Part shown: in pieces, positions 137 through 50,007 of the stretch | Position numbering within the stretch: the first letter of the stretch is position 1 | Layout: each line of letters begins with the position of its first letter | Assembly: GCA_019594235.1 (NCBI GenBank) | Contig: JAFDTG010000001.1 | Location: 5,722 to 69,721, forward strand | Direction of reading: 5' to 3' | From: Candidatus Saliniplasma halalkaliphilum | GTDB taxonomy: Archaea; Thermoplasmatota; Thermoplasmata; Halarchaeoplasmatales; Halarchaeoplasmataceae | DNA length: 64,000 bases | Notes under the pieces: model-generated | Database searches by the model: none | Seen by the model: only the letters and a program-made list of their open reading frames with translations | Told to the model about the DNA's origin: nothing | Made by a program: the position numbers and the translations under genes

Positions 137-388
137 ATGTCTGGAGAGATTAAAATGGCAGAAAGAAAAATAAACGTGAAGGGTGAAACTTGTCCGGTTC
201 CATTGGTCGAAACTAGAAAGGCAGTTAGAACGGCTGAGCCTGGAGATGTTCTCATAATTCAAGGGGATCATCCTCCATCAAAAGATGAAATACCCATGGC
301 AGTGGACGCTTTAGGTTTAGAACTTTTAGGTATCGAGGAAGACGGTAAAAACTGGACTATAAAGATCAAAATTCCAGCGGAGGTATGA
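137..388 (+). CDS. tusA: TusA-like sulfurtransferase (CPxP motif protein)
   Basis: 83 aa; the motif GETCPVPL (Cys-Pro-x-Pro) is typical of the TusA/SirA family; 4-nt ATGA overlap with the next gene. Confidence 0.7.
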   Translation: MSGEIKMAERKINVKGETCPVPLVETRKAVRTAEPGDVLIIQGDHPPSKDEIPMAVDALGLELLGIEEDGKNWTIKIKIPAEV

Positions 389-810
389 TATTGACCGGAA
401 AAACTACCCTTATAGTTCAAAGTGGTGACCACGATAAAGTTTACAGTGCATTCATAATAGGAAATGGTGCACTTTCCATGGGGATGGAGGTTTCGATGTA
501 TTTCACATTCTGGGGGCTTGAAAGATTGAAGAAAGGAAAACTAGACAAAGGTCCTCTTTCTAAAATGAATTTTCTTGGATTAGGTAAATGGATAATGAAG
601 AGAAAGATGAAGAAATCCAATGTGAGGGAATTAGAAGATATGATGGATGACTTTGTAGAATTGGGTGGTAAGATATTAGCTTGCGATATGACCATGGAAA
701 TAATGGGTGTAGAAAAGAAAGATTTAAGAGACGAAGTTATTTCCGATTACTGCGCAGTCGGTACATATATTAAAGAGGCGAAAGAATCTGATATAACACT
801 GTTTATATGA
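385..810 (+). CDS. DsrE/DsrF-like sulfur-relay family protein
   Basis: 141 aa; the N-terminus TLIVQSGDHDKVYSAFIIGNGA resembles the DsrE/TusD family; translationally coupled to TusA, a frequent pairing. Confidence 0.5.
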   Translation: MILTGKTTLIVQSGDHDKVYSAFIIGNGALSMGMEVSMYFTFWGLERLKKGKLDKGPLSKMNFLGLGKWIMKRKMKKSNVRELEDMMDDFVELGGKILACDMTMEIMGVEKKDLRDEVISDYCAVGTYIKEAKESDITLFI

Positions 811-820
811 GGTGTAGAAG

Positions 821-1987
821 ATGAAAGAAGAAACAGTATATCTAGATAACAGTTCAAGCACGAAGATGGATGAAGAGGTTTTAGAAGCCATGAAACCTTA
901 CTTGTTCGAGAAATATGCAGTAGCAAGTTCTGAATTTGGATATTCTCTTGGGATCAAAGCAAAAGAGGGTTTGGAAGATGCTAGGAGCACTATAGCAGAT
1001 AATATAGGAGCCAACTCTGAAGAGTTAATATTTACGTCATGTGGGACAGAAGCAAGCAATCTAGCTTTGAAAGGTGTAGCTGAGAAACTGCCTGAAGATA
1101 AAGATCATATAATCACTAGTAAAATAGAGGATTTTCCCGTTCTAAAAAGTGCCCAGAGATTAGAAAAAGAGGGATACGAAGTTACGTTTCTCGAAGTAGA
1201 TGATGAAGGTTTTGTGGATGTTGACGAATTGGAAGATGCAATCAATGAGAGGACTGGACTGGTTTCGATACAGCACGGAAACCAAGAGATTGGAACAATT
1301 CAAGATGTCGAGAAAATTAGTAAAATATGTGACCAAAAAGACGTTTTATTTCACACCGATGCAACTCATACTTTCACGAAACTACCCATCGACGTCAGTA
1401 AAACTCCTATAGATTTGATGACCTTATCAGCACATACAATACACGGTCCAAAAGGGATTGGAGCACTTTATGTCAAAGATGGAACTGATATAGAAAAAAT
1501 GATGGATGGTGGTTTTCAGGAGAACAATCGAAGAGCCGGTGTCGAAAATATCCCAGGCGCCGTTGGGTTCGCAAAAGCGGTCGAACTCGTAAATGAAGAA
1601 GAGAATCAAAGGCTCAAAGGGATGAGAGATGCTCTTATAAAGAAAATACAGGATAAAATTCTCGACACAACTTTAAACGGACCTGCAAAGGATAGAACAC
1701 CGCAGAACGCAAATATCACATTCCATTACGTCGAAGGTGAATCGATAACACTCCACATGGATATGAGAGGCTTTTCCGTGAGCACCGGTTCGGCCTGTTT
1801 CAGCAAGTCTTTAGAAGCGAGTCATGTCATAATGGGGATCGGTGGGGACCATGAAAGGGCTCACGGTTCAGTTAGATTTAGCTTTGGAAGATATAATACG
1901 ATGGAAGATGTTGATAGAACTGTAAAAGCTATAAGTGAAGTTGTAAAAAGATTAAGAGAGATAAGTCCTTTAGGAAAAGATAAATAG
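821..1987 (+). CDS. iscS: cysteine desulfurase (IscS/NifS, class V aminotransferase)
   Basis: 388 aa; SAHTIHGPKGIGALYV pyridoxal-lysine region and STGSACFS active-site Cys loop. Confidence 0.85.
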   Translation: MKEETVYLDNSSSTKMDEEVLEAMKPYLFEKYAVASSEFGYSLGIKAKEGLEDARSTIADNIGANSEELIFTSCGTEASNLALKGVAEKLPEDKDHIITSKIEDFPVLKSAQRLEKEGYEVTFLEVDDEGFVDVDELEDAINERTGLVSIQHGNQEIGTIQDVEKISKICDQKDVLFHTDATHTFTKLPIDVSKTPIDLMTLSAHTIHGPKGIGALYVKDGTDIEKMMDGGFQENNRRAGVENIPGAVGFAKAVELVNEEENQRLKGMRDALIKKIQDKILDTTLNGPAKDRTPQNANITFHYVEGESITLHMDMRGFSVSTGSACFSKSLEASHVIMGIGGDHERAHGSVRFSFGRYNTMEDVDRTVKAISEVVKRLREISPLGKDK

Positions 1988-2009
1988 TTTGATAATAGGA
2001 GGTAAGAAC

Positions 2010-2651
2010 ATGGCAGATTTACCATATACAGAAAAAGTAATCGAATACTTCAAAAATCCTAAAAATGTTGGAAAGATAGAAGATGCAGACGGTAAAGCAA
2101 AAGAGGGGAGCCCAGCTTGTGGAGATATGGTTTCAGTCTACATAAAAGTAGATGATGAAACTAAAGAGATCACGGATATAAAATTCGAGTCCTATGGCTG
2201 TGCATCGAACATCGCTACCGGTTCTATAATCACGGAGATGGCCAAGGGAAAGACAATCGATGAAGCAAAAAATATCACCTGGAATGACGCTGCTGAAGAA
2301 CTAGGAGGTCTACCAGATATGAAAACCCACTGTTCCGTTTTAGCGGTTGAAGGACTACAGGCAGCTATCGCGGACTATGAGGAAAAACATGGTCTGGTAA
2401 AAGATGAAGAACCGACCACTGAAAAGGTCGTAGAGAAAAGGTTGAGACACGTGATGAACCCTATGACGGGACTAGATGTGGTCAAAACAGATCTGATCGG
2501 TGATATAGATGTTGAAGATGGAGTCATCTCCCTGAAAGTTGATCTTGCAGAAGATCATCAATTCGCCAATGCTATCAAGGAAGATATCATGGAAAAGTTG
2601 GAACATCTCTGGGATATCGATGACATCAAAATAAAATTCGCTGAAGATTGA
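2010..2651 (+). CDS. iscU: Fe-S cluster scaffold IscU/NifU-like with C-terminal DUF59/MIP18-like extension
   Basis: PACGD..YGCASNIA..HCSVLA carries the three IscU Cys plus His; GGAGGT Shine-Dalgarno 7 nt before ATG 2010 (the ORF track starts at 1989); an ~85-aa tail (MNPMTGLDVV..ISLKVDL..) has a DUF59-like pattern. Confidence 0.8.
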   Translation: MADLPYTEKVIEYFKNPKNVGKIEDADGKAKEGSPACGDMVSVYIKVDDETKEITDIKFESYGCASNIATGSIITEMAKGKTIDEAKNITWNDAAEELGGLPDMKTHCSVLAVEGLQAAIADYEEKHGLVKDEEPTTEKVVEKRLRHVMNPMTGLDVVKTDLIGDIDVEDGVISLKVDLAEDHQFANAIKEDIMEKLEHLWDIDDIKIKFAED

Positions 2652-2666
2652 TTGGATGTGTAAGAA

Positions 2667-3476
2667 ATGAAAGTTTCTTTGGTACAAAAAAAGCACGTTT
2701 TAGGAGATAAAGAAGCAAATTTAGGTATTATAAAAGATACGGTAAAACAAAATGATAGTGACCTATACATCTTCCCGGAACTATTTCTAACTGGTTACAG
2801 GCTAAGAGATAGATTATGGGATGAAGCTGAACAGATACCGGGTCATTCTACGGATAAAATTGTTGAATTAGCTGAAGAAGAACAGACTTCTATAATATTT
2901 GGTATGCCGGAAAAGATAGGTAGGAGTGGAAGATTGAAAAACTCCGCCGTTTTAGTAAATCCAGAAGGAGATATAGATGTATATAGAAAAACCTACCTAC
3001 CTAACTTCGGGCCTTTCGAAGAGATGAGATATTTTGGACCCGATGATAATATCCCTGTTTTCGATACTCAGTTCGGTAAGTTAGGTATGGTGATATGCTA
3101 TGATATTTTCTTCCCCGAACTGACCAAAGCGATGGCTCTGAAAGGTGCTGATTTCTTAGTTTGTATCTCTGCATCTCCTTCTATAAGTAAAAAGTTCTTC
3201 GAAACTGTTTTACCAGCTAGAGCTATTGAAACTACGGCTTTCATATTCTACGCAAATCTACTAGGTAGAGAGGAAAATTTCACGTTCTGGGGCGGAGATA
3301 GAGTTATTTCACCGACTGGTATGGAAGTCGCAAGGGGACCGATATATGAAGAAGACGTGTTGACAGTAGAAATTGACCTTGAAGACCTTGATAGAGCAAG
3401 AAAGGGGAGACCAGTTTTGAATGATACCAGAGCCGAAGTAATGTATGGTTCAGCCGACTCAATATTTATCGATTAG
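2667..3476 (+). CDS. carbon-nitrogen hydrolase (nitrilase superfamily)
   Basis: 269 aa; E...K...C triad context (FPELF; RKTYLP; MVICYD). Confidence 0.75.
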   Translation: MKVSLVQKKHVLGDKEANLGIIKDTVKQNDSDLYIFPELFLTGYRLRDRLWDEAEQIPGHSTDKIVELAEEEQTSIIFGMPEKIGRSGRLKNSAVLVNPEGDIDVYRKTYLPNFGPFEEMRYFGPDDNIPVFDTQFGKLGMVICYDIFFPELTKAMALKGADFLVCISASPSISKKFFETVLPARAIETTAFIFYANLLGREENFTFWGGDRVISPTGMEVARGPIYEEDVLTVEIDLEDLDRARKGRPVLNDTRAEVMYGSADSIFID

Positions 3477-10860: not shown

Positions 10861-11532
10861 TCAATTCCGTTGTAACTTATTTACCTTTTCATAATGATCT
10901 TTAGAATTCGAATATATCATTTTTTTATAATTTGTTTTATCTTCAGATAAATGCTTTAAATATAATAGTGAGGACACAGCAGATAAAATACCACCAAATA
11001 TTAAAGAAGTTGCAAATCCATAACCTATGCTAATTCCGGAGTGATCTAACTCTAAAACAGGAATATATGCAATGTACAATATCGAAAATAGCCACCACAT
11101 AAATAAAGGACTGATTCTATCGATTTTGTCAAATTGATATTTTAAAAGTTTGTATCCTACAAATACAATTACAACCGCATTTATCAAAAACATACCCTCT
11201 AAAATATGTATATTCAATGTGACTAAAAACAGTTCTAAAAAGAATGACACTATAGATAACCCTGCTATGATAAACATCCCTGCAATGAATGCAATAAAAG
11301 TGAACTCATGCTTAGTAAACAATAAAATAAAAGAAAACAAAAACAACAGACCAAGAAATATCAGGATTAACCAAATCACAGGGCTTTTGAAATATTCTTT
11401 AAATAATTGGGAAGTAAGTAAAATGAAAATCAGAGAGATCTCACCAAAAATTAAAAAATTTTTTAGTGGAATTATGTCAGACATTGTGTACAAATTTTCC
11501 TGTAACTCCTCGAACATTTTTAATGTCTCCAT
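10861..11532 (-). CDS. hypothetical polytopic membrane protein
   Basis: 223 aa with about 6 TM helices; no recognisable motif. Confidence 0.4.
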   Translation of the reverse strand: METLKMFEELQENLYTMSDIIPLKNFLIFGEISLIFILLTSQLFKEYFKSPVIWLILIFLGLLFLFSFILLFTKHEFTFIAFIAGMFIIAGLSIVSFFLELFLVTLNIHILEGMFLINAVVIVFVGYKLLKYQFDKIDRISPLFMWWLFSILYIAYIPVLELDHSGISIGYGFATSLIFGGILSAVSSLLYLKHLSEDKTNYKKMIYSNSKDHYEKVNKLQRN

Positions 11533-14466: not shown

Positions 14467-14540
14467 GGGCTCATAGTCTAGTTGGTTATGACGTCGCCTT
14501 GACATGGCGGAGGTCGCCGGTTCGAATCCGGCTGAGCCCA
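14467..14540 (+). tRNA. tRNA-Val (anticodon GAC)
   Basis: Cloverleaf: acceptor GGGCTCA/TGAGCCC, anticodon loop TTGACAT, T-loop GGTTCGAATCC, discriminator A; CCA not encoded. Confidence 0.85.
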
Positions 14541-15980: not shown

Positions 15981-18575
15981 ATGTCAGATAGAACACCCAT
16001 GATGAAGCAGTACTACAAACTGAAAAATCAGTACCCCGATTCAATCCTTTTCTTTCGGATGGGGGATTTTTACGAGATGTTCGATGAAGACGCTAAATTA
16101 GTAGCAAAGGAACTAGACATAGCCTTAACAACTAGAGATAAAGGAAAAGATGATCCAATACCTATGGCTGGTGTTCCATATCACTCCGTAGATTCTTACC
16201 TTCAAAGACTTATAAAAAATGGATACACAGTTGCAATTGCTGAACAGGTCGAAGATCCAAAACAAGCTAAGGGACTAGTTGATAGAGAAGTTGTAAGAGT
16301 AGTAACACCAGGAACTGTAATTGATGAGGGATTACTTGACGATTCTAGTAATAATTTTTTAATAGGGATAGCAGGTGACGGTCCTTACGGACTGGCTGCA
16401 GTGGATATATCTACAGGTGACTTTTTAGTCACTCAATTAGATGATGAAAAGGCTCTTGTTTCAGAAATAGTACGATATGAGCCTTCGGAATGCATATTAT
16501 CATCGAGCTTGATCAATGAGGAACAGTTTGTAGAAAAGCTGAGGCAGGAAGTTTCAATGATGATAAATAAATACAAAGACGAAGCATTCAGATTCCATCC
16601 TGCTGAATTAAAACTATTGGATCAGTTCGGTACAGAATCCTTGGAACCTCTTGGAATTAGTGATAAAAAACAAGCTGTAAGAGCGGCTGGAGCAGTCTTA
16701 GATTATCTTGAGGATACACAAAAAAGAACAATGGACTACATACAAAGACTACAATTTTATTCTCATGATGATTACATGACTTTGGATGCTACAACGTTAA
16801 AAAATTTAGAAATTTTTCAAAATTTACGTGAAGGAGGGAAAAAGGGAACTTTGCTTGAAATCATGGACGACACAGTAACTTCAATGGGTTACAGAAGGTT
16901 GAAAAAGTGGCTGCAACAGCCCTTACTTGATATCGATTTGATTGAAGAGAGATTAAAAGCAGTTCAGGAACTTAAAGATGAAATTTTTCTAAGGGACGAT
17001 CTTAGAAATCAGATGGACGGTATGTCAGATATAGAAAGGTTGATCAGCAGAGTGGTTTACGGAAACGCCAATGCTAGAGACCTGATTTCTATAAAGAACG
17101 TTTTAGGTAAATTGCAGCCCCTTCTAGAAATTTTAGATGATGTGAAAAGTGATTATTTACTCAATTTAAAAAAATCTTTAGACCCTATGGAAGACATCTG
17201 GAAACTAATCGATGACTCTATAATTAACGACCCTCCTAATACCGTTAAGGAAGGCGGCATTATAAAAGAAGGCTTCGACGATGATCTAGATGAGCTTAAA
17301 AGGAAAACAAAGGGGGGTAAAGAATGGATAAGTTCACTGGAAAGAAAAGAAAAAGATAAAACTGGGATCGAAACCTTAAAAGTTGGATACAATAAAGTCC
17401 ATGGTTACTACATAGAGGTACCAAAATCCCAGGATGATAAGGTTCCAGAGAACTATTCTAGAAAACAAACTTTGAAAAACAGCGAAAGATATTATACTGA
17501 AGAACTAAAAGATAAAGAAGAGGAGATAATCAGTTCGGAAGAAAAGATGGAGGCCTTTGAATACGAAATATTCAAAGAGATTCGAGAAGGGGCAGGTAGT
17601 CATTCAGAAAGGTTCCAAAAAACTGCAGAAGTGCTCTCTAAATTGGATGTTATTACTACGTTCGCTCATCTTGCGGTTAGAAATGATTACAATCGCCCTG
17701 ATATCGGAGAAGACGGTAGATTAGACATAAATGAGGGAAGGCATCCAGTAGTTGAAAAAACAGTGGATAGTTTTATTCCGAACGATGCACTTCTAGATAA
17801 GGAAAACAACAGATATATCATAATCACTGGACCTAATATGTCGGGTAAATCAACATATATGAGACAGAACGCATTGATTACGTTGTTAGCCCACGTAGGA
17901 AGTTTCGTTCCTGCCGAGAAAGCCCACATCGGGATCGTTGATAGAATATTTACCCGGGTTGGATCTTTAGATGCTTTGACTAGGGGTAAATCCACATTCA
18001 TGGTTGAAATGGTGGAGCTAGCTAACATATTACATAATGCATCCCAGGATAGTTTGATTTTGCTTGATGAAATAGGAAGTGGTACGAGCACATTCGATGG
18101 GCTGAGTATTGCCTGGGCTGTAACAGAGTATATCAATAAAAATATCAAAGCGAAAACGCTTTTTGCAACTCACTACCATGAGATAACAGAACTCGAAAAA
18201 TCTCTAAAAGGAGTTAAAAATTTACATGTTGCAGTTAAAGAAAGTGAGGGAGATGTAACATTTTTGAGGAAAGTAAGAGAAGGACACACCGACGAAAGTT
18301 ATGGTATCCATGTAGCATCTCTAGCAGGTGTGCCTAATCCAGTTGTTGAACGTTCTATGGAAGTGCTGAATCAAATAGAAGAGGACCACACTATAAAGAT
18401 GGAAACTCAAGATAGTCCTAAATTCAAACAGGTTGTTTTCGACCCCAATACTGGAGAAACATCTTCAGAAAGTCATCCTGTTATTGAAGAGTTAAAAAAG
18501 ATGGATATAGAGAATATGACTCCTATGGAAGCTATGAACGAACTTTGGAGACTTAGAAAGGAGGCGGAGGATTAA
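15981..18575 (+). CDS. mutS: DNA mismatch repair protein MutS (MutS1 type)
   Basis: 864 aa; N-terminal TPMMKQYYKLK..FFRMGDFYEMF mismatch-binding motif; Walker A GPNMSGKST. Confidence 0.9.
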   Translation: MSDRTPMMKQYYKLKNQYPDSILFFRMGDFYEMFDEDAKLVAKELDIALTTRDKGKDDPIPMAGVPYHSVDSYLQRLIKNGYTVAIAEQVEDPKQAKGLVDREVVRVVTPGTVIDEGLLDDSSNNFLIGIAGDGPYGLAAVDISTGDFLVTQLDDEKALVSEIVRYEPSECILSSSLINEEQFVEKLRQEVSMMINKYKDEAFRFHPAELKLLDQFGTESLEPLGISDKKQAVRAAGAVLDYLEDTQKRTMDYIQRLQFYSHDDYMTLDATTLKNLEIFQNLREGGKKGTLLEIMDDTVTSMGYRRLKKWLQQPLLDIDLIEERLKAVQELKDEIFLRDDLRNQMDGMSDIERLISRVVYGNANARDLISIKNVLGKLQPLLEILDDVKSDYLLNLKKSLDPMEDIWKLIDDSIINDPPNTVKEGGIIKEGFDDDLDELKRKTKGGKEWISSLERKEKDKTGIETLKVGYNKVHGYYIEVPKSQDDKVPENYSRKQTLKNSERYYTEELKDKEEEIISSEEKMEAFEYEIFKEIREGAGSHSERFQKTAEVLSKLDVITTFAHLAVRNDYNRPDIGEDGRLDINEGRHPVVEKTVDSFIPNDALLDKENNRYIIITGPNMSGKSTYMRQNALITLLAHVGSFVPAEKAHIGIVDRIFTRVGSLDALTRGKSTFMVEMVELANILHNASQDSLILLDEIGSGTSTFDGLSIAWAVTEYINKNIKAKTLFATHYHEITELEKSLKGVKNLHVAVKESEGDVTFLRKVREGHTDESYGIHVASLAGVPNPVVERSMEVLNQIEEDHTIKMETQDSPKFKQVVFDPNTGETSSESHPVIEELKKMDIENMTPMEAMNELWRLRKEAED

Positions 18576-18576
18576 A

Positions 18577-20292
18577 ATGCCAAAAATTAAAAAATTATCA
18601 TCTCGAACTGTGAATCAAATAGCTGCAGGAGAAGTGATCGAACGACCAGCTTCCGTGGTTAAGGAACTTATAGAGAATTCTCTAGACGCTGGTGCTGATG
18701 AGATATATATCGAAGTTGAAAATGGTGGAAAGGACCGTATTCTTGTAAAGGATAACGGGACCGGGATGGCAAAAGAAGAAGTGAAACTAGCCTTCGAAAA
18801 ACATGCTACTAGTAAGATAAATGATATCGATGACCTCGATGATCTAAGCAGTTTAGGTTTTAGAGGAGAAGCTCTACCTAGCATAGCGGCCGTATCAAAA
18901 GTTAAAGCTGAAACCAAACAGAAAGATGATTTAGAAGGAGTTGAAATAATAATCCATGGTGATGAAATAAAAAGTATAGACACCGTTGGTTGTCCTGTTG
19001 GAACGACTATCGAAGTGAAAGATTTGTTTTACAATACACCTGCTCGACGGAAGTATCTTAACAAGACCAACACTGAATTGGCCCATGTTACAAGCATCGT
19101 TACAAGGAATGCACTATCTAAACCAGAAGTTCAGTTTACTTTGATCCATAATGGTAATGAGATCTTCTTCGTACCGAAGGCAAAGTCTAAATTACAAAAT
19201 ATAAAATCGATTTACGGCGTTGATATCGCCAAAAAGATGGTGCATGTAGATGAGAAAAATGATTATATTTCAATTGATGGTTTTCTTAGTAAACCTGAAA
19301 TTACAAGATCTAACAGAAAACATATCTATACTTACGTAAACGGTAGGTTCGTAGAAAACTCACTTTTAAAAGACAGTGTGATGGAGGGCTATAAAACACT
19401 GCTTCCAAGAAAACGTTACCCAATCACAGTGATCGATCTTTCAATTTCTGGGAACTATATCGATGTGAATGTACATCCTACGAAAACCAAAATAAGATTT
19501 CGGGATGAAAAAAAAGTTAAAGAAGAAATAAGCAATGTTGTAAAATCAACACTTTTAAAACACGATCTTGTACCGACTCCAGACAAGGAAGTAAAAAGAG
19601 AAGTATATGAACAAGAGCAAAAGCAAAAAGATTCAGAAGATATTTTACAATCTACCAGCTTTGGTAATTCACAAAGTACTTTGGACCTTGAGGAAGAAGT
19701 TGATGTTAAAGAATCTAAGTTACCAGAGATGAAGATATTAGGGATACTCAAAAACTCTTATATTTTAACGGAAACCCCTAAAGGATTTTCAATTATAGAT
19801 CAGCACGCAGCTCACGAGAGGATTAACTACGAGGGATTGAAAAATAAATATGATAAAAATATCAGTAGTCAGGACTTATTATCCCCAAAAACAATCGAAG
19901 TTAAACCAAGAGAGGCCGCGCTTATCAAAGCAAATAATGAACTTTTAGAAAAGCTCGGTTTCAAACTCGAATCTTTTGGAAAATCAACCTATAGGATAAG
20001 GGGTATACCAGTGGTATTAGGCGAGATGCAAGGCGAAGAGATATTCTACTCAGTTTTAGATGAATTATCCGATTTAAAAACCAGCAGTTTAGAAGAAAGA
20101 AAAGAAGAATTGATCAAATATATGGCCTGTAGATCTTCCGTTATGGCTGGTGATAACTTATCGCTTACGATAGCTAAAGAAATAATCCAGAAATTAGGTA
20201 ATACTGAGATACCATATACATGCCCTCATGGAAGACCGACAATAATCAATTATACGACCAAAGAACTAGACAAGATGTTTAAAAGAACTTGA
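18577..20292 (+). CDS. mutL: DNA mismatch repair protein MutL (endonuclease-motif-containing)
   Basis: 571 aa; GHKL ATPase N-terminus (QIAAGEV..ELIENSLDA); C-terminal DQHAAHERINYE metal-binding endonuclease motif; 1-nt gap to mutS. Confidence 0.9.
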   Translation: MPKIKKLSSRTVNQIAAGEVIERPASVVKELIENSLDAGADEIYIEVENGGKDRILVKDNGTGMAKEEVKLAFEKHATSKINDIDDLDDLSSLGFRGEALPSIAAVSKVKAETKQKDDLEGVEIIIHGDEIKSIDTVGCPVGTTIEVKDLFYNTPARRKYLNKTNTELAHVTSIVTRNALSKPEVQFTLIHNGNEIFFVPKAKSKLQNIKSIYGVDIAKKMVHVDEKNDYISIDGFLSKPEITRSNRKHIYTYVNGRFVENSLLKDSVMEGYKTLLPRKRYPITVIDLSISGNYIDVNVHPTKTKIRFRDEKKVKEEISNVVKSTLLKHDLVPTPDKEVKREVYEQEQKQKDSEDILQSTSFGNSQSTLDLEEEVDVKESKLPEMKILGILKNSYILTETPKGFSIIDQHAAHERINYEGLKNKYDKNISSQDLLSPKTIEVKPREAALIKANNELLEKLGFKLESFGKSTYRIRGIPVVLGEMQGEEIFYSVLDELSDLKTSSLEERKEELIKYMACRSSVMAGDNLSLTIAKEIIQKLGNTEIPYTCPHGRPTIINYTTKELDKMFKRT

Positions 20293-20397: not shown

Positions 20398-20497
20398 AGC
20401 GGGGTAGGGTAGCTAGGAAAACCCGTCGGGCTCATATGGTGCATAATAAAGCACCTGAGGAACCCGGAGACCAGTGGTTCAAATCCACTCCCCGCTA
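20398..20497 (+). tRNA. tRNA-Met (CAT), initiator-like, with a 25-nt canonical (37/38) BHB intron
   Basis: Acceptor AGCGGGG/CCCCGCT (A1:U72); anticodon stem with three consecutive G:C pairs, loop CUCAUA|A; intron 20437-20461 with GGUGC/GCACC hairpin and UGAG pairing CUCA to form the bulge-helix-bulge; T-loop GGTTCAAATCC. Confidence 0.75.
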
Positions 20498-39983: not shown

Positions 39984-41828
39984 TCATTCTGAAAAAATAA
40001 CTCTCGCATCAAATTCAACTACTGGACATTTACCCAAACAGGTTCTACAGGTATTACATTTTTCAGAATCGATGTAAATCCCATTATTAAATTTTAGAGC
40101 ATCGTTGGGACACCTAGCAACGCAGATACCACATTCAGCACAATGCCTAGCTTTTATATGTATTTCATAGATATCTCCGTGATCTAAACCATGTTTTTCG
40201 AGTGTTTCCTTGAATTTATTTATATTTGATTTGTCAAATGTTTCTATTATGTCTTTGGATAATATTATATTTAGTAAATTTCTAGTTCTTTGATCTTCCA
40301 TCATTTCAGGTATGGAAGGTTTTACTTCTTTTGAGGATATTTCGGTTGAAAAATTTTCATCAATCCTATCTAAAAGTATCTCTATTTCTTTAGGTACATC
40401 ATTCCATCGCCAGAGTCCTAGTTCTTTCCAGATCTCAGGGAGTTTAGCCTTTTTTCTATAATTTTCTAAAACATCTTCAAATTTGTCATAACCTTCAAAC
40501 CTTTCTTTCAGCGTTTCAAGCTCTTCAATGTCAGATGCTGGACAAACCCAACATCCAATTCTTTCGAACCCCTTTTCATATAAAGGGTTATAATCTGCAT
40601 CTTTCAAAAACAAGTACATCCATACATGCAAAGCTGTCCAATCCTGTATAGGTGAAGCCGATCTTTGGCCAGGAACCCATGGATTGTTCCAGGTACTTCC
40701 TTTATCTTTTCTTTGCTCCGATTCATACCTACGTTGACCGATGAAAGATAATACACCATCGGAATATTCTTCATCTATCAAAAGAGCTGTTGGACCTAAT
40801 TTACAAGTTTTGCAGCACCAACGATAATCTCTAGCTGATGGACCAAAATAATCAACATTATCCCAATAACCGCTTCTAGCTCTTTTGGAGAATAAGTTTA
40901 GATCATATTTTTCAGCTATATTTTGGACGTTTTCCACAGTTTCTGGTAATTCTATACCAGTGTTTATGAACATAAGATCTGGTTTTATACCTGTATCCAT
41001 CACGAGATGTAATGTAGCTAAGGAATCTTTTCCACCACTGTAAGCTACAGCTGTCGGTAATTCAGTTTTATCGACTTTATCCTTGACGAAATCAACAGCT
41101 TTCATTACCCTTTTATCGATCAAAGGTTTATTCGCCTCGAGAACAGTGTCCCAATCAATTGATGTATCATTCAAAGTAAAATCTGAAACCCTCCAGCGAT
41201 TTTTAACCGATTTTCCATAATCAGATTCTAACATTTTCGAGGCATCCATCTGAGCAGAACCGGCTGCGATTATATTTCCATGTTTATCTAGTATCAATAC
41301 CTCGTCGTCTGTTTCTATATTTTCATCGGCTTCGATTATCCCTGGTGCTAATATACTAGCCCCATTCAATATTGGTTTTACCGCTCCATCATCGACTATA
41401 ACAAATCCCTTCTTAGGTTGTGGCATATTTTTCCACGGTCTTATCAAAAATTCATAGGGTTCTTTACCTTCAGCTCTTTTGAATATGTTGTACCTTAAAT
41501 TCCCCACCACATGTCCATCTATGATCACTTCATCCATCCTATCTATGTGAGGCGAATTGTTCAGAAGGATAACTTCTCTGTTCCCGAACAGTTCTTTGTA
41601 ATAGGATTCACCCCATTGGTGATCAATAGTTTTCTCCAAGCGTTCCTTATCTAATGAGAAGGCAGGTCTTACGTCACCGGGTGGTGTTATCTTCACTTGT
41701 TCACCCTCAGATGAACAGATACCACACTGGCCTTCTTCGACTAATGGGATATTGCATTCCTTACACCAGTGTAAATGTAACTTACCTAATCTTATAATGG
41801 ACATGAATTGATATCTAACATTATACAA
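39984..41828 (-). CDS. multidomain PP-loop (PAPS-reductase-family) ATP pyrophosphatase with N-terminal Zn-ribbon/PUA-like domain and C-terminal 2x[4Fe-4S] ferredoxin
   Basis: 614 aa; CKEC..CGIC ribbon; PP-loop AYSGGKDS; C-terminal CAECGICVARCP...CNTCRTCLGKCP. Confidence 0.6.
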   Translation of the reverse strand: MYNVRYQFMSIIRLGKLHLHWCKECNIPLVEEGQCGICSSEGEQVKITPPGDVRPAFSLDKERLEKTIDHQWGESYYKELFGNREVILLNNSPHIDRMDEVIIDGHVVGNLRYNIFKRAEGKEPYEFLIRPWKNMPQPKKGFVIVDDGAVKPILNGASILAPGIIEADENIETDDEVLILDKHGNIIAAGSAQMDASKMLESDYGKSVKNRWRVSDFTLNDTSIDWDTVLEANKPLIDKRVMKAVDFVKDKVDKTELPTAVAYSGGKDSLATLHLVMDTGIKPDLMFINTGIELPETVENVQNIAEKYDLNLFSKRARSGYWDNVDYFGPSARDYRWCCKTCKLGPTALLIDEEYSDGVLSFIGQRRYESEQRKDKGSTWNNPWVPGQRSASPIQDWTALHVWMYLFLKDADYNPLYEKGFERIGCWVCPASDIEELETLKERFEGYDKFEDVLENYRKKAKLPEIWKELGLWRWNDVPKEIEILLDRIDENFSTEISSKEVKPSIPEMMEDQRTRNLLNIILSKDIIETFDKSNINKFKETLEKHGLDHGDIYEIHIKARHCAECGICVARCPNDALKFNNGIYIDSEKCNTCRTCLGKCPVVEFDARVIFSE

Positions 41829-41860: not shown

Positions 41861-42379
41861 TCAATCAACTGGAATCACAGTCTTTTCCGGCAGTTCTTTT
41901 TTCACTTTTTTAGCGGTAGAGCCTTCTATAATACTGGAAATAGGACCTTTTTTACTACTGTGGATGATAACATAATCAACACCGATTTGATTAAAATCTT
42001 GGATGATCTCATCGGATATCTCTTCTGTCTTTCTTAATCTAACTTCTGCTGGAATGCCCATAGCTTCAACCATTTTTATCAAATTCTCTGCATGCTCGTC
42101 AGCTTGGTTCTTTTTTCCTTCTCGAACCGTTTCCAAAAAATCTTTTTTTTCTTCCATCCCTAAATTGGCGTCCACCAGTTCCGAGGTAGAATCTTCTTCT
42201 ATGATCTTAGATATGATTATCCTATCTGGTTGGATTTTTAAAATATATTTTCTAATCTTACCTAGGGTATTTCTATCGTACTCTTCCCTATAACTTGCGA
42301 TTAACAATATTTTTTCATCGCTATACTGGCCTTTAGGCATTAAGTTCCTCCATTGCCAGAGTCTACTTATATCAGCCAT
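41861..42379 (-). CDS. universal stress protein (UspA family)
   Basis: 172 aa; C-terminal VIIHSSKKGP..GSTAKKV ATP-binding motif. Confidence 0.75.
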   Translation of the reverse strand: MADISRLWQWRNLMPKGQYSDEKILLIASYREEYDRNTLGKIRKYILKIQPDRIIISKIIEEDSTSELVDANLGMEEKKDFLETVREGKKNQADEHAENLIKMVEAMGIPAEVRLRKTEEISDEIIQDFNQIGVDYVIIHSSKKGPISSIIEGSTAKKVKKELPEKTVIPVD

Positions 42380-46038: not shown

Positions 46039-46560
46039 CTACTTTCTATTTAGGAATATTCGTTTCCATCTTTTTATATCTCTTTTTAAGCTGCTGTAAA
46101 AAGATGGAAAGTACACTACACTCAACAATATAGCAATGATCAATACGGCGATATAAAATACTTCTCTGTCAGCTCTATAAGCCTCGATCCCCCCTATTAT
46201 GAATCCGAGTTCATCAACTATCAAACCCAGTCCAAGTCCATATAAAATAGAACTGATCCTGACTATGCTTCGACTCCAATAATTTATAGACAACCATGCA
46301 GCTAAGGATATCAGAATGATACCATAAGTGATATGGTGAATATGGTAACCACCTAACACTACATTTCGACCTATTGTTGTAGGAGGTGGCGTGGTTTCGT
46401 GAGCCCCCAGATATATTACCCACAATCTAGCACCGACAAATGATATCAAAAAAGATATGCACATCAAGAAGGGGACCGAACTCCTATTTTTATGGATTTC
46501 ATTTTTAAGTAATCGGGGAACTAAAGTCAATCTCTTCAAGACCTTTTCTTTTGCAGACAT
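46039..46560 (-). CDS. hypothetical membrane protein
   Basis: 173 aa with 4 TM segments. Confidence 0.4.
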   Translation of the reverse strand: MSAKEKVLKRLTLVPRLLKNEIHKNRSSVPFLMCISFLISFVGARLWVIYLGAHETTPPPTTIGRNVVLGGYHIHHITYGIILISLAAWLSINYWSRSIVRISSILYGLGLGLIVDELGFIIGGIEAYRADREVFYIAVLIIAILLSVVYFPSFYSSLKRDIKRWKRIFLNRK

Positions 46561-46619: not shown

Positions 46620-48278
46620 TCAAACGATATAAACTTCACATTCCTCCGTTTTATATATTGAATAATTTGTTCGATAATATTCTAAAGCATGAGGATTGAA
46701 TCTATGAGGTGTGACTCCTGGGGAGGTGGATACACCTTTCAACATATCTTGGTCCCATAATATGTAACTAATATTTAGTGTAGTCAATTCTTCACGTATA
46801 TCCGAAGGGTCTGACGAGAAATACAGATGATAACCTTGAGTCCAAGTTAAGTTATTATTACCCACTCCAAAAAGAACTGCGCTCATCCTGTGATCTGTGG
46901 CTATTTTCTCTTCAATACCACGGGTCCAAATACCCGCTTCTACGTCTTTCCAATCACTGCCTTCCTGATATCCGCTAATACTCTCTTGTTCAGGATACGT
47001 GAAAGGGATCGACCATATAAGAAGAAACGCGATTAAAAGTACCAATATCGTACTTTTACTTTTTCCCTTAAAAGGATTATAGAGATTGAATATCTGGATT
47101 ATACCCAATCCCAATAGGATGGACAAAGGAAGTAGTAAAAACGAAAGCTGTCTCATAGGAAGTAGTGATGAATCTTCTGTTACCACTCCTAATATCATCG
47201 AAAGAGTGGCAAACAAAAACCATCCTACTACGTGTATTCCATCTCTAAATATTTTAATTATTTTCCTAGCTTCAACCGCTAGAATTCCTAAAAGTAATAG
47301 AGGAAAATAAAAAAATACCTGATAACCGAGTTTAAAATTCCTACCAGGTACTCTATAAAATCCAGCGAACAACAATAATGTTGTACAAATTATAAGAGAA
47401 GGTATTGCAAACTTTAAAAAAGTCTTTATATTTTGTTTATGAATATTGATAGGTAATACATAATCTGATTTTCTCCTAAATTTTATTAATACGTATGCTA
47501 CAAAAAGCAGTAGGTATGGGGCTATGATTATCGAATATGAGGGAGTGTCTAAAGCCTGATATATCCTATTTTGACGGAATGGATCCGCATATAACATCCA
47601 GTATAAAATGGCAGTAGTGGTTAGTAAGATATAAGTATAAAATTTATAGGTGTTGGTAACATCCGACCTTCTCTTCACAAATTCCGAGAAAAAGACACCC
47701 CCTAGAATGAATAAGATCGAAAAGTAAGTGGTGAGATGATGTGTTACTACTAAAGCTGCTGCTGTAGGTATTATCAAAAAATAAACCTTTTTACTTTTCT
47801 TAGAAAGGATTATAAAAAACACCAGTAGCACTGCCATGAGAAAGAATCCTACTGTCTCTGGTTTGGGTTGCGAATAATTATAAACAAAAGGAGCTAAGAC
47901 ACCGAGAAACATAGATGATACAAGTGACGGTCTCCATGATTTAGTTATCTTATAAGATAATAAGAAAACAAGTAGTGGAACGAAAGATGATATTATCACG
48001 GGTATGAAGGTAGTACTGTCAAGTAATGAAGTATTCGAGGTTAAATAAAAAGAACCACTCAAAACAAACATACCTGGAAAATAGGGATAAGCTTGCCCCC
48101 AACCATCTATACTAAGATAGGACGAGCCAGTGTTAACCCATTTTTGAGTATAATAAAAGTATTCTCCGAAATCCATACCCCACATAGAATACCTAAAGAG
48201 AGGTATCGTTCTCATTAATAGAGAGAACAATGTTATCGATAAGAGTGATAACAGGATTACCTTGTATCTATTTTTCAT
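46620..48278 (-). CDS. large polytopic membrane protein, possibly GT-C-type glycosyltransferase
   Basis: 552 aa with more than 10 TM segments; acidic first-loop motif WGMDFGEY; C-terminal soluble domain. Confidence 0.4.
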   Translation of the reverse strand: MKNRYKVILLSLLSITLFSLLMRTIPLFRYSMWGMDFGEYFYYTQKWVNTGSSYLSIDGWGQAYPYFPGMFVLSGSFYLTSNTSLLDSTTFIPVIISSFVPLLVFLLSYKITKSWRPSLVSSMFLGVLAPFVYNYSQPKPETVGFFLMAVLLVFFIILSKKSKKVYFLIIPTAAALVVTHHLTTYFSILFILGGVFFSEFVKRRSDVTNTYKFYTYILLTTTAILYWMLYADPFRQNRIYQALDTPSYSIIIAPYLLLFVAYVLIKFRRKSDYVLPINIHKQNIKTFLKFAIPSLIICTTLLLFAGFYRVPGRNFKLGYQVFFYFPLLLLGILAVEARKIIKIFRDGIHVVGWFLFATLSMILGVVTEDSSLLPMRQLSFLLLPLSILLGLGIIQIFNLYNPFKGKSKSTILVLLIAFLLIWSIPFTYPEQESISGYQEGSDWKDVEAGIWTRGIEEKIATDHRMSAVLFGVGNNNLTWTQGYHLYFSSDPSDIREELTTLNISYILWDQDMLKGVSTSPGVTPHRFNPHALEYYRTNYSIYKTEECEVYIV

Positions 48279-48370
48279 CGCTTAAGAGATATAATTACAA
48301 TACTTTATTATTTTTCCTAGTCAACTTCTTGAAACAAAAATATATTAAATATCATTGTGTTAGAAAAATC

Positions 48371-49375
48371 ATGACCGATCTATCTCATAGGTACTCTAGA
48401 CATACCGTATTAAAAGAAATCGGAGATGAAGGACAGAGAAAAATTAGCGAAAGCAAAGTTGCTATACTAGGCCAAGGCGCCCTCGGAACAGTTATGACAG
48501 AAGGACTCGCCCGAAGTGGTGTTGGTGAGATAGTTATCGCAGATAGAGATTTTGTAGAATTGTCGAATCTCCAGCGGCAGGCTCTTTTCGATGAAAACGA
48601 TATCGGAAAGGCAAAAGCCGAAGTCGCGGCAGAGAAATTGAAAAAAATAAACTCTGATATCAAAATAAATTCACATGTTTTAGACATCAATACAAAAAAT
48701 ATTGAAAAATTGATCGATGGTTCGGACCTTGTCATGGACGCTTCAGACAACATGAAACTTAGATTTCTGATAAATGATGCCTGCATAAAACATGATATCC
48801 CATGGATATACTCTGCTGTACTTGGAACCTATGGTATGACCATGAACATCACTTATGAAGGGGCACCATGTCTTCGATGTCTAATACCTGAACAACCTAA
48901 TAGTGAAAGTATGGGAACCTGTGCCTCGGAGGGAGTTCTTTTTTCACTCCCTAGAGTTATCGCCAATATTGCAGCAACTGAGGCTATTAAATTTATAGTG
49001 GGTAGGGAAAACAGAAAAGAACTATTAACTGTGGATATCTGGCGGAACGAATTTGACTTTACCAAAGTTAGAAAAAAGGACGATTGTGACTGCTGTGTAA
49101 ATAAAGATTTTAGATATCTTGAAGGGAAAGACGATGAGACCGTTGAACTTTGTGGACGAGACGCAATACAAATAATACCATCCGATAAAGATAAAGTTGA
49201 TCTCGATAGTTTAGTTAAAAGGTATAGAGATGCGAAAAAGATCGGACAACATCTAGTCCGATTAAATGTTGAAGGTTACGAGTTAAATATCTTCAAGGAC
49301 GGTCGAATAATAGTGAAGGGAACCGAGGATGTTAACAAGGCAAAAAGTCTATATTCAGAATACATCGGCAGATAA
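48371..49375 (+). CDS. ThiF/MoeB/UbaA-family E1-like adenylyltransferase
   Basis: GQGALGT nucleotide loop, ADRDFVELSNLQRQ, CxxC...CxxC Zn site; ~90-aa C-terminal extension; start at ATG 48371 (the longer track ORF overlaps the upstream gene). Confidence 0.75.
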   Translation: MTDLSHRYSRHTVLKEIGDEGQRKISESKVAILGQGALGTVMTEGLARSGVGEIVIADRDFVELSNLQRQALFDENDIGKAKAEVAAEKLKKINSDIKINSHVLDINTKNIEKLIDGSDLVMDASDNMKLRFLINDACIKHDIPWIYSAVLGTYGMTMNITYEGAPCLRCLIPEQPNSESMGTCASEGVLFSLPRVIANIAATEAIKFIVGRENRKELLTVDIWRNEFDFTKVRKKDDCDCCVNKDFRYLEGKDDETVELCGRDAIQIIPSDKDKVDLDSLVKRYRDAKKIGQHLVRLNVEGYELNIFKDGRIIVKGTEDVNKAKSLYSEYIGR

Positions 49376-49386
49376 TATTCTTTAAA

Positions 49387-50007
49387 TTAGGGTTTAAAAT
49401 ATTCTAAACTTTCTATAAGTGGGTTTATCTGTATCTTTTTTTCTTCACGTAAAACTTCATCGTTAGAACTCTTTATCCTTGGTCCAGAGGGTGTGAGTAG
49501 ACAGCAAACTGCAGGTTTTATGGATATATCAAATGTTCCGATCTCTTTAGCTATATCAATTATCTCATTCTTGTCTAGACCGATCAATGGTCTGTGGATG
49601 GGGAGATCAACAGCCTCATCTTCAGTTGCCAAATTAGATAAAGTTTGAGAAGCGACTTGCCCTAGAGATTCACCGGTAGCTATCGAGGAGGCTTCGAGGT
49701 TTTCTGCTAACTTCTCTGCAGCTCTGTACATCATACGTCTGCAAAGTATACATCTAAAGCTGGATTCCGTATTCTTTGTGATCAACTTATGAATATCTTC
49801 GAATTTAGTTCGGTAAAAAACAATATCAGGATGAATTTCTTTCAATCTATCGACCAGTTTGTCAACATTTTTTATGGTCTTATCATCGGTGAAGGGTCTA
49901 TGGTCTATATTTAACAATATGACTTTTGCCCCTGCCTCAGCGAAGAGATGTGCGGCAACGGGAGAATCTATCCCTCCTGACAGCAAAACAACAACCTTTT
50001 GTACCAT
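49387..50007 (-). CDS. ThiI-like PP-loop sulfurtransferase (THUMP-less) with CxxC
   Basis: LLSGGIDSPVAA PP-loop; CILCRR and a later CC, recalling Fe-S-dependent archaeal ThiI. Confidence 0.6.
   Translation of the reverse strand: MVQKVVVLLSGGIDSPVAAHLFAEAGAKVILLNIDHRPFTDDKTIKNVDKLVDRLKEIHPDIVFYRTKFEDIHKLITKNTESSFRCILCRRMMYRAAEKLAENLEASSIATGESLGQVASQTLSNLATEDEAVDLPIHRPLIGLDKNEIIDIAKEIGTFDISIKPAVCCLLTPSGPRIKSSNDEVLREEKKIQINPLIESLEYFKP

Follow-up and report, generated by a model that had tools for sequence, protein, structure and literature searches.

The first genes of a 64,000-nucleotide stretch of the genome of Candidatus Saliniplasma halalkaliphilum, an archaeon of the Thermoplasmatota (GenBank assembly GCA_019594235.1, contig JAFDTG010000001.1, positions 5,722–69,721; the whole stretch is referred to here as the window), encode a TusA-family sulfur carrier, a DsrE-like protein, a homolog of the cysteine desulfurase IscS, and the iron-sulfur (Fe-S) cluster scaffold IscU fused to a DUF59 domain. 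An earlier note on this DNA, made from the sequence alone, had described these genes as a sulfur relay joined to a minimal iron-sulfur cluster (ISC) system. The four open reading frames (ORFs) named in it exist and all lie on the plus strand, but the third gene was taken for a cysteine desulfurase, and in its product the lysine that binds pyridoxal 5′-phosphate (PLP) is absent. The note's picture, with TusA and DsrE beside a working IscS, must be reversed: because IscS is without its catalytic lysine, we read the two carriers as a source of sulfur for a desulfurase-dead IscS, which is more likely than their being acceptors from it. We put the chances at about even that the locus is a cysteine-independent variant of the minimal ISC or minimal iron-sulfur (MIS) type, in which TusA and the DsrE-like protein supply IscS and IscU with sulfur. 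The two carriers are candidates for the missing sulfur-supply arm of lysine-less IscS, beside which they stand in two unrelated subtypes; in a control set they were never found beside lysine-containing IscS. The problem addressed is how Fe-S clusters are assembled without cysteine as the sulfur donor in anaerobes, methanogens and their relatives.

A compact four-gene module

The features of the locus are listed below by window position.

33–154, no strand: divergent intergenic region upstream of tusA, delimited by comparison with relative L001; putative promoter region
155–388, plus strand: tusA, TusA-family sulfur carrier, 77 aa (PF01206)
385–810, plus strand: DsrE2/DsrE3-like single-subunit sulfur carrier, 141 aa (PF13686)
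821–1987, plus strand: IscS/NifS-family protein without the PLP Schiff-base lysine, 388 aa (PF00266 and alignments)
2010–2651, plus strand: IscU-DUF59 fusion, 213 aa (PF01592 and PF01883, ribosome-binding site)
2025–2390, plus strand: IscU (NifU_N) scaffold domain (PF01592)
2427–2636, plus strand: DUF59 (FeS_assembly_P) domain of an unusual subtype (PF01883, AlphaFold2, Foldseek)
2667–3476, plus strand: carbon-nitrogen hydrolase, nitrilase superfamily (PF00795, E = 4e-49)

In the ORF list of the window, the longest plus-strand frames run from 137 to 388, 385 to 810, 821 to 1987, 1989 to 2651 and 2667 to 3476. The likely start of tusA is ATG155, 8 nt 3′ of GGAGAG, and that of the scaffold gene is ATG2010, with AGGAGGT ahead of it. 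The start of the dsrE-like gene overlaps the tusA stop by 4 nt, the ATGA overlap reported earlier being real, and gaps of 10, 22 and 15 nt follow in order. Packing of this kind, from an overlap to a 22-nt gap, suggests that the four genes are not transcribed separately. The cluster had been drawn at 137–3476; the four-gene module indeed begins there but ends at 2651, the remainder (2667–3476) being the hydrolase gene, which had gone unmentioned.

The IscS homolog lacks the PLP lysine

The IscS homolog matches PF00266 (E = 2.9e-77, 260.6 bits) and its top PDB matches are IscS/NifS-type enzymes, yet its NCBIfam scores stay under the cut-offs for NifS (457.9 against 530.75) and IscS (392.5 against 548, and 383.3 against 643.2). 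Alignment to E. coli IscS (1p3w) and to 9wep reveals that Lys206 is replaced by Thr206 (codon 1436–1438; SAHT-IHGPKG against S(G/A)HK-(I/M)YGPKG), His104 by Asp104 (codon 1130–1132; IED-F against (T/I)EH-(K/H)), Asn155 by Gln155 (NQEIG against NNEIG) and Gln183 by His183 (DATH against DA(T/V)Q). Thr76, Asp180, Ser203, His205 and the arginine equivalent to E. coli Arg354 are kept, as is the loop cysteine Cys326 (E. coli Cys328) in STGSACFS. Sites were mapped on what we take to be the E. coli IscS sequence, of which the 1p3w alignment confirms residues 95–219. Since the PLP lysine and three further PLP contacts are lost, persulfide is most likely not made from cysteine by this protein, and its sequence indicates that it most likely has no cysteine desulfurase activity.

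The same replacements recur in the 71 IscS proteins, from Archaea and Bacteria, whose genes adjoin one for IscU-DUF59. Position 206 is threonine in 67 of them, leucine in three and serine in one, and lysine in none; position 104 is aspartate in 71/71, position 155 glutamine in 69/71 and position 183 histidine in 70/71, while Cys328 and Arg354 are invariant. These proteins are 65–70% identical across the two domains of life, and the substitutions are thus better seen as a selected state than as decay.

The two carriers retain their cysteines

TusA of the window scores well above the cut-off of PF01206 (E = 2e-18, 66.4 bits against 28.6) and under those of both NCBIfam equivalogs, TusA and YedF; its nearest structures are TM0983, TsuB/YeeD and E. 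coli TusA. The active-site cysteine lies in TCPVPLVE (codon 191–193). The DsrE-like protein matches PF13686 (DrsE_2; E = 1.9e-37, 129.1 bits against a cut-off of 25) but falls far short of the NCBIfam DsrE2 equivalog (68.5 against 210). Its Cys100, in GGKILACDMTMEIMG (codon 682–684), belongs to the family motif GGK..AC.MTM.IMG and aligns with the cysteine of PDB entries 3pnx and 2qs7; a second cysteine, Cys123, is not conserved. The active-site cysteine of TusA and Cys100 of the DsrE-like protein are each invariant among 69 homologs. Persulfuration of a DsrE protein at Cys78 by sulfide alone has been achieved in vitro (PMC3397948).

A scaffold fused to a histidine-type DUF59 domain

The IscU domain occupies residues 13–134 of the 1989 ORF (PF01592, NifU_N; E = 5e-45, 153.1 bits against a cut-off of 22), with NCBIfam equivalog scores again under the cut-offs (NifU_clost 156.5 against 187.9; iscU 117.5 against 192.4), and a database protein (P0001) is 100% identical to the whole 213-aa fusion. 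Its scaffold ligands are complete, as the earlier note had said: Cys37, Asp39, Cys64, His107 and Cys108 are present in the window protein and invariant in 81 relatives. The position of the chaperone-binding motif (LPPVK) reads LPDMK, the family consensus being LP..K, and the locus contains no HscA or HscB gene.

The note had further likened the cysteine-free tail to DUF59 and proposed a profile search and structure prediction, and on both counts the likeness stands. PF01883 matches residues 147–216 of the ORF (E = 2e-11; 44.4 bits with the full protein and 47.1 with the tail alone, cut-off 23.5). The AlphaFold2 model of the whole fusion has a predicted local distance difference test score (pLDDT) of 87.3 and a predicted template modeling score (pTM) of 0.78, and that of the tail alone a pLDDT of 92.8. 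With the full-length model the top 50 Foldseek matches are IscU structures only; with the tail model, the ten PDB matches at E ≤ 1e-3 are all DUF59 proteins (TM-score 0.66–0.78), namely TT1362 (3CQ1/3CQ2/2CU6), Bacillus anthracis 3LNO, TM0487 (1UWD) and Mycobacterium tuberculosis Rv1466 (5IRD). The tail profile matches TM0487 at E = 2.5e-8. Where the note gave 'DP' for the tail, the motif reads V-M-N-P-x-T-G-L-D-V-V; the 'DPE' of DUF59 is replaced by 'NPx'.

The tail has no cysteine, so the T-x-x-x-C-P motif of DUF59 is absent, and in the profile alignment its HQFA falls on the CPLA of TM0487, TT1362 and 3LNO. Hence the cysteine that is reported as conserved in every SufT homolog (PMC4982691) is replaced here by an invariant histidine (His183 of the fusion, codon 2556–2558), the hallmark C-P having become a conserved H-Q-F-A. 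A search of the tail against 1.84 billion representative proteins gave 46 matches, almost all of them fragments or variants of IscU-DUF59, and the histidine-type DUF59 is essentially confined to the IscU fusion. The histidine is a feature of the main subtype only, given that the divergent fusions P0161, P0163 and P0164 have neither cysteine nor the HQFA histidine at the site (for example ...EKDDAFKEVV..., ...GETDEMFFGNI...). This histidine-for-cysteine subtype bears on what DUF59 domains do.

Conservation of the module across Archaea and Bacteria

Relatives were collected by scanning one genome per GTDB species; at least 588 were confirmed and the best 80 loci were analyzed. The IscU family has 7,422 matches; the best 120 among those listed are without exception two-domain fusions of about 211 aa, and the best 80 of the at least 588 GTDB relatives are likewise all full-length fusions. 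The nearest database proteins come from Candidatus Saliniplasma and from metagenome-assembled genomes (MAGs) of other Thermoplasmatota. Among the best 80, the archaeal carriers belong to Thermoplasmatota, Hadarchaeota, Methanosarcinales and Methanomassiliicoccales, and the bacterial ones to Anaerolineae, Dehalococcoidia, Actinomycetota, Clostridia, Atribacterota and WOR-3. Carriers available in culture are Methanosarcina, Methanolobus, Acidaminobacter hydrogenoformans, Dethiosulfatibacter aminovorans and Parasporobacterium paucivorans. Most carriers are anaerobes, many of them from sulfidic habitats.

All four genes lie on one strand in 64 of the 80 species loci, with median gaps of 2–12 nt, so that both the fusion and the gene set, whose conservation across the lineage the earlier note had asked about, extend well beyond it. 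The order TusA-DsrE2-IscS-IscU/DUF59 is found in 51 loci, and IscS-IscU/DUF59-TusA-DsrE2 in 13, mostly labelled Anaerolineae or Anaerolineales. The Methanosarcina loci (L039, L056 and L063) have the first of these orders. Nine of the remaining 16 loci end at contig boundaries.

The next commonest neighbors, in 12 loci each, are a glutaredoxin and a protein resembling the catalytic (beta) subunit of ferredoxin:thioredoxin reductase (FTR) fused to rubredoxin. Five bacterial loci (L012, L019, L024, L030 and L037) contain Nfu (PF01106); the same five and L080 contain Rrf2, followed by the glutaredoxin and the FTR-beta-like/rubredoxin fusion, and L003, L051, L052, L054, L062 and L066 have, of these extension genes, only the last two. 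In the extended bacterial and Hadarchaeota loci the additions stand downstream of the module. They possibly provide a cluster carrier (Nfu), a regulator (Rrf2) and an electron supply, and such additions fit a role of the module in Fe-S assembly.

TusA and DsrE accompany lysine-less IscS

A second lysine-less type of IscS carries a different signature, with His104 kept, Gln183Ala, His205Asn and Lys206Asp substitutions, and Arg354 lost. It occurs in Archaeoglobus fulgidus, Ferroglobus, Hadarchaeum, Bathyarchaeota and three more metagenome contigs, one of which is labelled as a Thaumarchaeota MAG. TusA and/or a DsrE-like protein is encoded beside iscS in 8/8 loci of this type: TusA in seven, and DsrE directly upstream in six, a seventh DsrE gene standing just downstream of iscU. 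The A. fulgidus loci were fetched by means of the IscU sequence recovered from a PDB alignment. Both sequenced strains encode, in order, TusA (77 aa, CPEP), a DsrE-like protein (119 aa, MVCDRS), IscS, IscU and a 112-aa helix-turn-helix (HTH) protein, and a second A. fulgidus copy keeps the DsrE-like gene. The order is TusA-IscS-IscU in Ferroglobus, TusA-DsrE-IscS-IscU in Hadarchaeum and in the three further metagenome contigs, and TusA-IscS-IscU with DsrE downstream in the Bathyarchaeota contig.

IscS proteins of the second type are only 42–48% identical to that of the window, roughly the distance that separates either group from E. coli IscS. In a rough neighbor-joining tree without support values, the window type forms one clade of 71 and the other lysine-less proteins fall into at least two further groups.

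As a control we examined 80 metagenome IscS loci from a scan led by the lysine-containing IscS of PDB 9wep. Lys206 is present in 67/80, 66 of which have the full canonical H-N-Q-H-K-C-R signature. Within the flanks available, TusA/DsrE genes were found beside none of the 67 lysine-containing IscS genes and beside six of the 13 lysine-less ones (Fisher's exact p = 5.7e-6, in a test that counts phylogenetically non-independent loci). When only loci with sufficient flanking sequence on either side are counted, the figures are 0/41 and 3/3 (p = 7.6e-5), and five of the seven lysine-less control loci without TusA/DsrE end just upstream of iscS. The hidden Markov model (HMM) used for TusA in this control finds E. 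coli TusA at E = 4e-18.

Some further observations were made on these loci. The lysine-less variants show more diversity than the two main types cover: in the control set (L090–L169) their residues at positions 104/155/183/205/206 include HGAND, HNAVS, HSAVQ, HGANQ, HNANQ, HGANS and HNANP, and one locus has QNQHM, with lysine changed to methionine. The 112-aa HTH-type protein, which contains a CxxC, lies directly 3′ of iscU in all A. fulgidus copies (L081, CP006577: 6466–6804); we considered it as a split-off DUF59 domain and rejected this, the protein being of HTH type with no DUF59 similarity. About 0.5 kb further on, on the opposite strand (L081 7325–8849), lie another TusA gene and one that resembles sulfite/nitrite reductase (NIR_SIR). 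In three loci of the A. fulgidus type (L087, L088 and L089) a gene for a flavodoxin-like flavin mononucleotide (FMN) reductase closely precedes tusA, and iscU is closely followed by genes for pyruvate:ferredoxin oxidoreductase.

A proposed route for sulfur and its alternatives

We propose that TusA, with the cysteine of its CPxP motif, and the DsrE2-like protein, with Cys100, would take up sulfane sulfur derived from sulfide, polysulfide, thiosulfate or another donor. The resulting persulfide would be relayed from the carriers to Cys326 of IscS, straight to IscU, or both, and the sulfur would be joined with iron on IscU. IscS, non-catalytic or differently catalytic and with its transfer or ligand cysteine kept, would most likely serve as a dimeric platform for two IscU scaffolds that places a cysteine at the assembly site, as has been shown for the lysine-less IscS of A. 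fulgidus. By analogy with SufT and CIA2, the histidine-type DUF59 might retain the cluster, furnish a fourth ligand or hand the cluster over to targets; its role probably lies in holding or passing on the finished cluster. Electrons, the part of ferredoxin in ISC, may come in some lineages from the glutaredoxin/FTR-like or FMN-reductase-like neighbors. We infer both the direction of sulfur flow, from TusA and the DsrE-like protein to IscS and IscU, and the identity of the donor. The proposal builds directly on the identities of the proteins, the active-site substitutions, the retained carrier cysteines, the linkage of the genes and the association of TusA/DsrE with lysine-less IscS. Furthermore, an E. 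coli isc/suf mutant was not complemented by A. fulgidus iscS2U2 on its own, not even when Na2S was supplied (bioRxiv 10.1101/2024.03.20.586028), a failure that is expected if TusA and DsrE are needed.

Several points weigh against this proposal. Six loci with usable flanks (L021, L023, L028, L032, L050 and L072) miss one or more of the partner genes: in an Anaerolineae contig (L021) the 3.4 kb upstream of the IscU-DUF59 gene contain none for IscS, TusA or DsrE, and a Methanococcoides locus (L023) has IscS-IscU/DUF59 with no TusA or DsrE gene within about 5–6 kb on either side. Besides the non-independence of its loci, the control is affected by a DsrE HMM that misses E. coli TusD and is weak for distant DsrE/TusD relatives. 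Methanosarcina acetivorans IscS1 was insoluble when expressed alone (PMC7585200). Free sulfide could be the sulfur input without any relay. Finally, window-type IscS may still bind PLP or pyridoxamine 5′-phosphate (PMP) and carry out some chemistry, and such binding may persist because the residues for the phosphate and the pyridine nitrogen (Thr76, Asp180, Ser203 and His205) and the carboxylate-binding arginine are kept.

The first of the alternatives, to which we give a limited but real chance, makes IscS a structural partner and cysteine ligand only, with free sulfide as the sulfur used; TusA and DsrE would then act as a buffer for sulfane sulfur or detoxify it, regulate IscS-IscU by competing for binding, or supply some other target of thiolation. 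Free sulfide is the hypothesis made for A. fulgidus IscS (PMC8918507), the predominance of anaerobes, many from sulfidic habitats, agrees with it, and, by the title of a study cited in PMC13066941, E. coli TusA and IscU compete for binding to IscS. Pure buffering, however, would not predict a tight, order-keeping linkage of both carriers to the lysine-less rather than the active IscS; the invariance of the carrier cysteines and the failure of A. fulgidus iscSU with Na2S to complement E. coli also tell against this account.

We regard it as unlikely that the window IscS is an enzyme with new chemistry, in which a PMP-type or metal-dependent site acts on another sulfur substrate. Histidine takes the place of lysine in PMP-dependent dehydratases that share this fold (ColD, E1), which speaks for such an enzyme, as do the strict conservation of the replacement residues, with no drift, and the retention in the window type of Thr76, Asp180, Ser203, His205 and Arg354, where the A. 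fulgidus type has lost His205 and Arg354. A. fulgidus IscS, moreover, still binds PMP (PMC8918507). But the sequence suggests no candidate substrate, and a relay accounts more simply for the association with sulfur carriers.

That IscS is an active desulfurase, feeding IscU and an outflow through TusA to the DsrE-like protein as E. coli IscS feeds TusA and TusBCD in tRNA thiolation, seems to us very improbable. The same protein families do act in the order IscS, TusA, TusBCD in E. coli (PMC3397948), and the PF00266 and NifS/IscS models match strongly. The Schiff-base lysine, His104, Asn155 and Gln183 are nevertheless replaced, none of the 71 linked homologs has Lys206, all NCBIfam equivalog scores are under their cut-offs, and the lysine-containing IscS loci of the control set are without TusA/DsrE neighbors. 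Nor are the partners of a Tus outflow (TusE/DsrC, MnmA and TusBC) seen: neither the locus nor the set of recurrent neighbors includes a gene for TusE/DsrC or MnmA, and there is a single DsrE-like gene only. We rejected an outflow of this kind as the leading interpretation for want of the catalytic lysine.

A decaying, non-functional iscSU duplicate might be suspected from the lost lysine and from the two other iscSU copies of M. acetivorans (PMC7585200), but this is effectively refuted by the 65–95% identity across two domains of life, the invariant cysteines, intact ORFs, linkage in 64/80 species loci and large family, and by the mark given to IscS1 (MA0808) for its detection in the proteome of M. 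acetivorans (Table 1, PMC7585200).

The relay proposal also has a bolder form, which we consider doubtful: lysine-less IscS with TusA/DsrE would be a distinct, widespread and possibly ancient cysteine-free supply derived from at least two IscS lineages, the remodelled but strictly conserved pocket of the window type (Asp104/Gln155/His183/Thr206), which keeps its residues for binding phosphate and carboxylate, would have become a catalytic or metal/cofactor site of a new kind, and the DUF59 histidine would be a cluster ligand for hand-over.

The flanks of the module and other genes of the window

In L001, a 94%-identical relative, tusA is preceded by a minus-strand gene (L001 3711–4019) whose start corresponds to about window position 32; by this comparison the window begins inside a divergent upstream gene, which makes tusA the opening gene of the transcription unit. 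The divergent region upstream of tusA contains CCAAAACATTAATGTAT at 66–82, which includes the perfect 10-bp palindrome ACATTAATGT. It occurs once in the window and is kept in L001 and also in L002, despite an otherwise diverged intergenic region, and may be a binding site for a regulator. At the other end, the carbon-nitrogen hydrolase gene starts 15 nt 3′ of the IscU-DUF59 stop on the same strand and is probably co-transcribed with the module here, with a convergent trkH gene 3′ of it. Within the 80 GTDB species loci it is linked to the module in L001 and L002 only, the two closest relatives. We rejected it as a component of the module for this reason; it is a lineage-specific passenger.

Elsewhere in the window there are archaeal genes for TFIIB, eIF-6, ELP3 and pyruvoyl arginine decarboxylase, and, in this archaeal genome, a bacterial-type MutS-MutL mismatch repair pair (15981–20292, plus strand). 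A tRNA-Val(GAC) gene lies at 14467–14540. Rfam assigns a tRNA of 100 nt to 20398–20497 on the plus strand (51 bits), which is absent from the ARAGORN output; its length suggests an intron-containing archaeal tRNA. Three further genes with a bearing on sulfur transfer stand apart from the module: one for a 614-aa protein with PUA and 3′-phosphoadenosine-5′-phosphosulfate (PAPS) reductase domains (39984–41828, minus strand), one for a ThiF-like E1 enzyme (48230–49375, plus strand) and one for a short ThiI of 206 aa with the PP-loop domain only (49387–50007, minus strand). Four minus-strand ORFs, at 46620–48278, 10861–11532, 41861–42379 and 46039–46560 (552, 223, 172 and 173 aa), have no Pfam match at E ≤ 1e-5.

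Comparison with known systems

Each of the protein families discussed here was known before, as were the inactive IscS of A. fulgidus, the isc1 locus of M. acetivorans and rare IscU-DUF59 fusions. In the open-access full-text literature, subscription-only papers being outside this scope, we found no link of TusA/DsrE to lysine-less IscS or to MIS. Not found there either are the constant partnership of lysine-less IscS with TusA/DsrE in two subtypes and its absence beside active IscS, the Asp104/Gln155/His183/Thr206 pattern, and the cysteine-to-histidine DUF59 subtype.

The E. coli ISC system and Tus relay employ the same four families, and the exchange of persulfide between the loop cysteine of IscS and proteins of the TusA and DsrE families, known there, is what we propose here. 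In contrast to the role proposed for the window protein, IscS of E. coli works as a desulfurase and gives sulfur to TusA. In E. coli, tusA is not next to iscSU, whereas in the window it is; the DsrE-family partner is the TusBCD heterohexamer, acting with TusE and MnmA, as against a single DsrE-like protein; and IscR, IscA, HscBA and Fdx are present, none of which is encoded in the window locus, where the neighbors are the carbon-nitrogen hydrolase, TrkH and Mrp subunits.

MIS was described in a 2026 review as a cysteine desulfurase and a scaffold that 'does not contain additional components' (PMC13066941). MIS (MisS/MisU) and the window locus have in common a pair of IscS-like and IscU-like proteins, the lack of chaperones and A-type carriers, and an occurrence in anaerobic archaea and bacteria. 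In the window, unlike MIS, the desulfurase lysine is absent, two sulfur-carrier partners are constant and the scaffold bears a DUF59 domain.

SufT, CIA2 and other DUF59 proteins (1UWD, 3CQ1, 3LNO and 5IRD) share their fold and PF01883 with the tail of the fusion and are implicated in late Fe-S protein maturation, the difference being the conserved cysteine of the SufT type against the invariant histidine of the window type. Mashruwala et al. 2016 (PMC4982691) briefly listed a fusion of this kind, with an N-terminal U-type scaffold, under the name 'S5 architecture' (n = 5).

Sulfur oxidizers have relays of TusA with DsrE3 or DsrE2 (Dsr and sHdr systems; Metallosphaera, Hyphomicrobium and Allochromatium) that hand on sulfane sulfur; in them TusA is paired, as in the window, with a single-cysteine DsrE-family protein (PF13686 or PF02635). 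Those relays feed dissimilatory sulfur oxidation through DsrC or sHdr, whereas that of the window sits in an Fe-S assembly operon.

Matched by its described features, the isc1 locus of M. acetivorans apparently belongs to the window family, from which it shows no difference in kind. IscS1 (MA0808) is reported to miss the PLP-binding residues and the catalytically essential lysine and to have the loop STGSACFS, and IscU1 (MA0807) has 24.2 kDa, the size of the fusion, against 14 kDa for IscU2 and IscU3 (Deere et al. 2020, PMC7585200). Another pair, the active IscS2-IscU2, is encoded among genes for the biosynthesis of methionine and nicotinamide adenine dinucleotide (NAD), and IscS3-IscU3 is without partner genes (PMC7585200). 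That paper names neither DUF59 nor TusA/DsrE; the Methanosarcina loci identify two of the unknown genes associated with isc1 as tusA and a dsrE2-like gene.

The IscS-IscU pair of A. fulgidus (PDB 4EB5, 4EB7, 4HVK and 4R5F) resembles that of the window in lacking the PLP lysine, keeping the loop cysteine, having IscU as its partner and standing behind tusA and a dsrE-like gene, and among solved structures its IscU comes nearest to the IscU domain of the window. Its active site took a different course (K206D, H205N and Q183A, with Arg354 lost and His104 kept, against K206T, H104D, N155Q and Q183H in the window, where His205 and Arg354 are retained), and the two IscS proteins are 44% identical, no closer to each other than either is to E. 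coli IscS. The A. fulgidus IscU is without DUF59 and is followed by the 112-aa HTH protein, unlike the window fusion, and the DsrE-like protein is of the shorter type, with 119 aa against 141 aa. The inactive, lysine-less A. fulgidus IscS, with Asp199, binds PMP and gives a cysteine ligand to the [2Fe-2S] cluster of IscU; how it supports cluster assembly without a desulfurase was called an open question, for which free sulfide was hypothesized (PMC8918507). With TusA and DsrE-like carriers encoded beside this IscS as well, the stated question of where the dead A. fulgidus IscS-IscU pair obtains its sulfur becomes simple to test.

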